A stretch of DNA of 64,000 bases, from assembly GCF_045037415.1 (NCBI RefSeq), contig NZ_CP173438.1. The stretch is one strand, 5' to 3'. The stretch is from Escherichia coli. GTDB taxonomy: Bacteria > Pseudomonadota > Gammaproteobacteria > Enterobacterales > Enterobacteriaceae. The translations under genes were made by a program, and so were the position numbers. Under the pieces are notes generated by a model. The model made no database searches and was not told the DNA's origin. It saw nothing but the letters and a program-made list of their open reading frames with translations. Shown piece by piece: positions 58,555-58,821 of this stretch; positions within the stretch are counted from its first letter, which is position 1, and every line of letters begins with the position of its first letter.

Positions 58555-58821
58555 ATGGAATGGCTGGTCAAAAAATCGTGCTGCAATAAACAAAATAACA
58601 GACATGTACTTATGCTCTGCGATGCTGGCGGCGCGATAAAAATGATCGCCGAAGTGAAGAGTGACTTCGCCGTGAAAGTGGGGGATTTACTCTCGCCTTT
58701 GCAGAATGCGCTTTACTGTATTAATCGTGAAAAGCTGCACACGGTGAAAGTTCTTTCTGCAAGCTGTTATAGCCCCGATGAGTGGGAACGGCAGTGTAAA
58801 GCGGCAGGGAAAACTCAGTAA
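58555..58821 (+). CDS. pmrD: signal-transduction connector protein PmrD
   Basis: Track ORF from 58525; ATG at 58555 (MEWLVKKS...) gives 88 aa; lies between menE and the arn operon. Confidence 0.8.

Follow-up and report, generated by a model that had tools for sequence, protein, structure and literature searches.

Organisation of the pmrD-arnF locus

The window, that is the whole stretch of 64,000 nucleotides of Escherichia coli contig NZ_CP173438.1 that was analysed, carries menFDHBCE and pmrD in this order, followed on the opposite strand by arnF-arnE-arnT-arnD-arnA (Table 1). PmrD is the connector protein linking the PhoP/PhoQ and PmrA/PmrB systems; its gene is a single PhoP-activated gene, and arnF is the final gene of the PmrA-activated arnBCADTEF operon. 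The order arnA-arnD-arnT-arnE-arnF, with arnF directly after arnE, was confirmed using the ORF list and the RefSeq annotation, and the arn operon is tightly packed. The window ends within arnA, and arnC, arnB and the PmrA-dependent arnB promoter with its PmrA box lie outside it.

Gene identities were checked against family models. PmrD scored 176 bits with NCBIfam NF011994 (cutoff 96, residues 1-85) and 159 bits with Pfam PF11183 (cutoff 21.2, residues 1-82), and ArnF, a flippase subunit, scored 139.6 bits with the NCBIfam equivalog NF002816 (cutoff 99, residues 4-122), placing both proteins within these families. ArnE (210 bits) and MenE (758 bits) likewise exceeded the curated cutoffs of their NCBIfam equivalogs. 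A protein of 579 residues with nine matched stretches to the PmrD profile (P0101) was discarded as a tandem-repeat artefact and is no relative of PmrD. Many PmrD homologs of 79-81 residues carry the name 'histidine kinase' in NCBI, among them those of Klebsiella aerogenes (P0080 and members of its cluster) and Pseudocitrobacter (P0077), a name that has apparently been propagated in error; in Rahnella, distant members of the PmrD family are labelled hypothetical.

Table 1. Features of the pmrD-arnF locus in the window, and spacing of the pmrD-arnF junction across genera (negative values, overlap of the coding sequences)
Feature	Position	Strand	Details
menE	57090-58445	+	Co-directional with and upstream of pmrD; 109-bp spacer holding the pmrD promoter
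Predicted pmrD promoter	58487-58521	+	PhoP-box-like CGTTGATAATAGGTTTA at 58487-58503, 12 nt, -10-like TAAATT at 58516-58521
pmrD coding sequence	58555-58821	+	88 aa; stop TAA at 58819-58821; sequence, ORF list and RefSeq agree
Tail-to-tail overlap TCAGTAA	58815-58821	both	7 bp; direct sequence reading
arnF coding sequence	59201-58815	-	128 aa; stop TGA, reverse complement of 58815-58817; sequence, ORF list and RefSeq agree
Small palindrome CTTCCCAGCCGGGAAG	58907-58922		Inside arnF, 86 nt past the pmrD stop; followed by GGACTTTTTC on the minus strand
arnE coding sequence	59201-59536	-	Stop overlaps arnF start by 1 base (TAATG); start overlaps arnT stop by 4 bp
arnT coding sequence	59533-61185	-	
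arnD	61185-62075	-	Upstream of arnT
arnA	62072 to beyond 64000	-	Most of the gene inside the window
Junction, E. coli and E. albertii			-7 bp
Junction, S. enterica and subsp. diarizonae			-6 bp; palindrome TCATGA
Junction, Citrobacter amalonaticus group, three loci			+3 bp
Junction, Citrobacter amalonaticus group, one locus			+9 bp

In the window sequence, pmrD ends in AAA ACT CAG TAA and arnF in CGT TAC TGA. The shared bases comprise, on the pmrD side, the stop codon and, in part, the last two codons, and, on the arnF side, the stop codon, the last codon and one base of the codon preceding it. A sequence-only reading of this DNA had named the two genes and described a convergent overlap of 7 bp; names, coordinates and overlap were exact to the base when compared with the sequence, the ORF list and RefSeq. 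Its statement that a terminator cannot fit between the genes is likewise borne out, the stop codons overlapping with zero spacer. An annotation artefact was ruled out as the source of the overlap: the stop codons are unambiguous and both frames give full-length family matches. Because the stop codons are unambiguous, chance statistics are also unsuited to this pair.

Six convergent gene pairs are present in the window and coding sequences overlap only at pmrD/arnF; since the other five pairs are separated by spacers of 158, 32, 58, 66 and 120 bp, this is the tightest convergent junction locally. As neighbours that lie on opposite strands, tail to tail, pmrD and arnF have the arrangement of a convergent excludon. 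On a practical level, a deletion or tag placed at the 3' end of either gene changes the other, and expression data that lack strand specificity are ambiguous at the junction.

Conservation of the junction

The 7-bp overlap is annotated by RefSeq in strain SK1144 (pmrD 9156-9422 (+), arnF 9416-9802 (-), locus L001), in K-12 MG1655 (arnF 2372892-2373278, pmrD 2373272-2373538) and in O157:H7. The window itself was identical to SK1144 (NZ_AP018784.2, 1543212-1607211) at 49,996 of 50,000 and 14,601 of 14,601 positions in the two stretches aligned. Among 5426 complete E. coli genomes, a 901-nt locus was found in 5417 and the 65-nt junction, at an identity of at least 90%, in 5155.

Several individual alleles were also recorded. 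In some E. coli, pmrD is frameshifted and encodes 103 residues (P0015, P0020), with an altered C-terminus that runs 53 bp into arnF (locus L019, pmrD 1501-1812, arnF 1760-2146). An IS1 element splits arnF in strain 23753 (match H1, NZ_CM190131.1), and in strain OkiPb01700 (NZ_AP042594.1, L022 1-762) an IS3-family element occupies the expected site of pmrD and only arnF is annotated. A premature stop appears to inactivate arnF in Escherichia sp. MOD1-EC7003 (L002 3264-3533), and in the type strain of Salmonella enterica subsp. arizonae the reading frame from the ArnF match is truncated (L010 3282-3626).

Beyond E. coli, the junction was surveyed by a genome scan using a PmrD alignment, in combination with stop-codon mapping and one Salmonella enterica locus. 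The two genes abut at all Escherichia, Salmonella and Citrobacter loci with an intact arnF, at spacings ranging from -7 to +9 bp. As judged from these sequences, abutment is kept and the exact length of the overlap is not conserved. The overlap lies outside the conserved cores of both proteins: the models reach residue 85 (NCBIfam) or 82 (Pfam) in PmrD, which has 88, and residue 122 in ArnF, which has 128. Alignment of the C-terminal tails displayed substitutions and indels between genera together with a length difference of 30 nt.

In other lineages, pmrD is found apart from arnF. The homolog of Klebsiella aerogenes is flanked by amn and a gene for a hydrolase, and that of Pseudocitrobacter by genes for an MFS transporter and a ferredoxin-like protein. 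The arn operon has been lost, and menE-pmrD-ais kept, in a strain labelled E. coli SCPM-O-B-8794 and in Intestinirhabdus alba (L004 2971-3700 and L011 3001-4114, respectively), the former with a PmrD of 90 residues and an arnF remnant of 22 codons; in such lineages the connector is present without its best-known output operon. Since the genes are non-adjacent in K. aerogenes and Pseudocitrobacter, and two lineages lack arn, pmrD is independent of convergence with arnF.

Because the overlap varies in length, sits in unconserved tails and accompanies an adjacency that is dispensable, its geometry looks like the by-product of a spacer-less junction. The reading preferred here, at a probability of roughly 0.7, is that of an ordinary convergent coding overlap at such a junction, with any interference arising as a side effect and no dedicated regulatory device. 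The short, unconserved C-terminal tails of PmrD and ArnF would run to the first in-frame stop, which in each gene would happen to fall a few bases inside the neighbour. Two points argue against the by-product reading. Although the tails of both proteins have acquired indels, abutment has persisted in three genera, which selection could explain. The genes also share one pathway, and the direction of any interference, with PmrA-induced arn transcription acting against pmrD, would agree with the negative feedback known for it.

Termination signals and RNA folds

A consensus scan for intrinsic terminators on the minus strand from the arnF stop (58814) down to 57800, and on the plus strand from the pmrD stop (58822) up to 60000, found none. 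With no predicted intrinsic terminator beyond the stop codon of either gene, both transcripts have to end within the gene opposite. Five terminator-like matches were obtained in the region, all of them within genes, compared with a shuffled expectation of 2.5 +/- 1.6. The folds of the junction RNAs (131 nt of the plus strand and 181 nt of the minus strand) were not better than those of shuffled sequences (z = +0.7 and +1.0, respectively), and a search of Rfam over 57000-61000 gave no match with an E value of 1 or below. A bidirectional intrinsic terminator, consisting of a GC-rich hairpin with an A-tract and a U-tract, was not present at or between the gene ends.

The sole terminator-like element near the junction is the small GC-rich palindrome within arnF (Table 1), which is weak and probably a chance match. 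Its predicted folding energy is -9 to -10 kcal/mol, with z values of -0.6 on the minus strand and -2.0 on the plus strand; of the two strands, that of arn alone has an adjoining U-run, and there the palindrome precedes the arnF stop by 86 nt; the hairpin is absent from Citrobacter and Salmonella. As a weak, Escherichia-specific element, it was rejected as a conserved terminator.

The first 200 nt of both read-through RNAs have a C/G ratio of approximately 1.1-1.7. From what is generally known of Rho, such a composition would allow Rho to load on RNA freed of ribosomes by the termination of translation. Rho typically requires approximately 80 nt of free RNA and releases the transcript further downstream. 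In the preferred reading of an ordinary convergent overlap, the ribosome-free antisense RNA past each stop codon would be ended by Rho, by head-on collision of polymerases or by both, and read-through may extend over tens to a few hundred nucleotides.

These data also bear on the alternative that both transcripts are terminated efficiently just inside the neighbouring gene, for example by the hairpin or by Rho sites, such that the overlap would measure a few tens of nucleotides and the functional parts of the genes would not be reached. The position of the palindrome, a short distance beyond the pmrD stop, and the excess of C over G in both read-through RNAs would suit this proposal, as would the lack of any dsRNA duplex within pmrD or arnF among the entries listed in a published capture data set (see below). 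Set against it are the low stability of the hairpin, which is without a U-tract on the pmrD strand, its position upstream of the arnF stop on the arn strand and its restriction to Escherichia; the number of terminator-like matches, which is close to the shuffled expectation; and the length of free RNA that Rho needs, by which release would be displaced further downstream. Efficient termination immediately inside each neighbour is thus regarded as very unlikely.

Transcript overlap in published data

The arnF-pmrD pair is listed by ExcludonFinder (Nucleic Acids Res 2025, PMC12288877) among 165 convergent excludons of MG1655, for which a convergent overlap in at least 50% of 58 MG1655 RNA-seq data sets was demanded, and is cited there as an example of partners within one pathway. 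Conway et al. 2014 (PMC4161252) reported complementary 3' ends, with a mean overlap of 286 nt, for 276 of 370 convergent E. coli operons (75%), and transcript overlap is therefore the rule for convergent operons in this species. For pmrD and arnF, geometry alone dictates an mRNA overlap of at least 7 nt. The overlap is accordingly a feature that is already annotated, already catalogued and typical of E. coli. As it stands it has little significance, being a standard item of the reference annotation in a class that covers most convergent operons of the species.

Other published tables were consulted for the same region. The Term-seq tables of Adams 2021 hold no entry for pmrD or arnF. The p19 dsRNA-capture tables (Huang 2020, PMC7373196), which require both strands for capture, contain no pmrD/arnF duplex among the entries listed; they do include entries for the neighbours menE and arnD. 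Two of the p19 sense/antisense duplexes map to the menE 3' end, at 58421-58444 and 58344-58366 of the window, indicating that some arn-strand RNA exists beyond pmrD; this RNA, opposite the menE 3' end, may be a product of arn read-through or of a promoter nearby. A literature search for pmrD antisense RNA, a terminator, read-through or strand-specific transcription returned nothing specific beyond ExcludonFinder, and no data on reciprocal expression of pmrD and arnF were found.

The sequence-only reading had gone on to propose that each transcript reads antisense into the other gene, giving scope for mutual interference between the connector and the operon it helps to activate. The first part, an obligatory complementarity of the two mRNAs at their 3' ends, is upheld by the missing terminator and by the RNA-seq catalogue (PMC12288877). 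A regulatory role of the interference is not, in view of the variable overlap, the non-adjacent homologs, the frequency of convergent overlap, the feedback that acts at the promoter and the lack of a pmrD/arnF duplex among the p19 entries listed; geometry is what speaks in its favour. As a prediction from that geometry, mutual transcriptional interference between arn and pmrD is plausible, and in the by-product reading it would add no more than a mild brake on pmrD under strong arn induction. Were arn read-through to damp pmrD measurably, the circuit of polymyxin resistance, which is of clinical relevance, would gain a layer.

The pmrD promoter region and feedback

The pmrD promoter was predicted from a PhoP-box-like element (Table 1) that matches the pattern with two mismatches, in a region that is conserved across Escherichia. 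The predicted layout corresponds to architecture I of the Salmonella pmrD promoter, in which the box is located 12 nt upstream of the -10 element (PMC3335776). For a polymerase reading through from arn, the predicted promoter would lie approximately 290 bp past the arnF stop.

The same region was scanned for PmrA boxes. The only hit upstream of pmrD was a PmrA-box-like sequence, ACTAATGATTTCTTAAT, at 58441-58457 on the minus strand, which spans the menE stop, has two mismatches to YTTAAK-N5-YTTAAK and is far from the core promoter; as a positive control, the scan recovered a box with one mismatch at the arnB promoter (L001 16865-16881). A promoter-like site was also observed on the minus strand at 58519-58492 (TTTACA, 16 nt, TATTAT; 10 of 12 matches), inside the pmrD promoter region and directed into the 3' end of menE; in K-12 and O157 the -10 hexamer of this site is degraded, reading CTTTAT.

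The position of the promoter is of relevance for the second alternative, that of a functional excludon, in which PmrA-activated arn transcription would cross the 267-bp pmrD gene as far as its promoter and lower pmrD expression, by means of polymerase collision, promoter occlusion or RNase III cleavage of the paired 3' ends. Conversely, strong PhoP-driven transcription of pmrD would trim the 3' end of the arn mRNA, and the negative feedback loop between PmrA and PmrD would gain a second arm. Such an arrangement would be favoured by the short distance between the arnF stop and the predicted promoter, at a junction with neither a spacer nor a predicted terminator, and by the tail-to-tail adjacency that Escherichia, Salmonella and Citrobacter have kept. 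The catalogue entry, in which the partners are named as functionally related (PMC12288877), and the arn-strand RNA captured by p19 beyond pmrD, opposite the menE 3' end, point in the same direction.

However, no expression data were found that tie the two genes reciprocally, and no p19 duplex was reported within pmrD or arnF among the entries listed. The overlap differs in length between genera, K. aerogenes and Pseudocitrobacter maintain pmrD without adjacency, and convergent E. coli operons overlap by default. In addition, the negative feedback on pmrD that is documented, as far as the account in PMC3335776 extends (citing Kato 2003), consists of PmrA binding to the pmrD promoter. On balance a functional excludon is considered unlikely. 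More doubtful again is the specific proposal that in Escherichia, Salmonella and Citrobacter arn read-through serves as an antisense brake on pmrD, forming a transcription-coupled second arm of the feedback that would be absent where pmrD is located elsewhere, as in K. aerogenes; if true, this brake could add to the species differences in the strength of the PhoP signal reaching PmrA. An ordinary convergent overlap continues to be the preferred reading of the junction.

Comparison with known systems

The documented control of pmrD by PmrA (Kato, Latifi and Groisman 2003; PMC3335776) follows the same logic as a putative brake exerted by arn, in that active PmrA lowers pmrD. Repression in Salmonella is achieved by direct binding to the promoter and needs no antisense transcription, unlike a mechanism based on arn read-through.

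The bidirectional intrinsic terminators described by Wang, Ju, Liu et al. (bioRxiv 10.1101/2022.10.23.513370) share with this locus the feature that convergent polymerases meet near the junction. Polymerases converging on pmrD and arnF must do so at or close to the junction, so that a head-on collision is a possible end for both transcripts. The mechanism presented there needs a stem-loop between the gene boundaries, whereas the pmrD/arnF junction is without one.

With the convergent excludons (PMC4161252, PMC12288877) the pair shares a tail-to-tail arrangement of neighbouring genes on opposite strands and complementary 3' mRNA ends. The excludons listed have a mean spacer of 95 nt (PMC12288877); pmrD and arnF differ in that the overlap is not confined to the 3' UTRs and includes 7 bp of coding sequence. 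Reciprocal expression is the functional hallmark of excludons, and the likeness of pmrD/arnF to them is drawn from geometry and transcript overlap.

A comparable arrangement within the same regulon is that of pmrR and basS (pmrB), a different locus outside the window, for which the likeness is taken from the literature. There too a PmrA-regulon gene shares its 3' end with a small gene on the opposite strand, reportedly over 25 bp in BL21 (PMC8004244), and pmrR-basS is found, like arnF-pmrD, in the list of excludons (PMC12288877).
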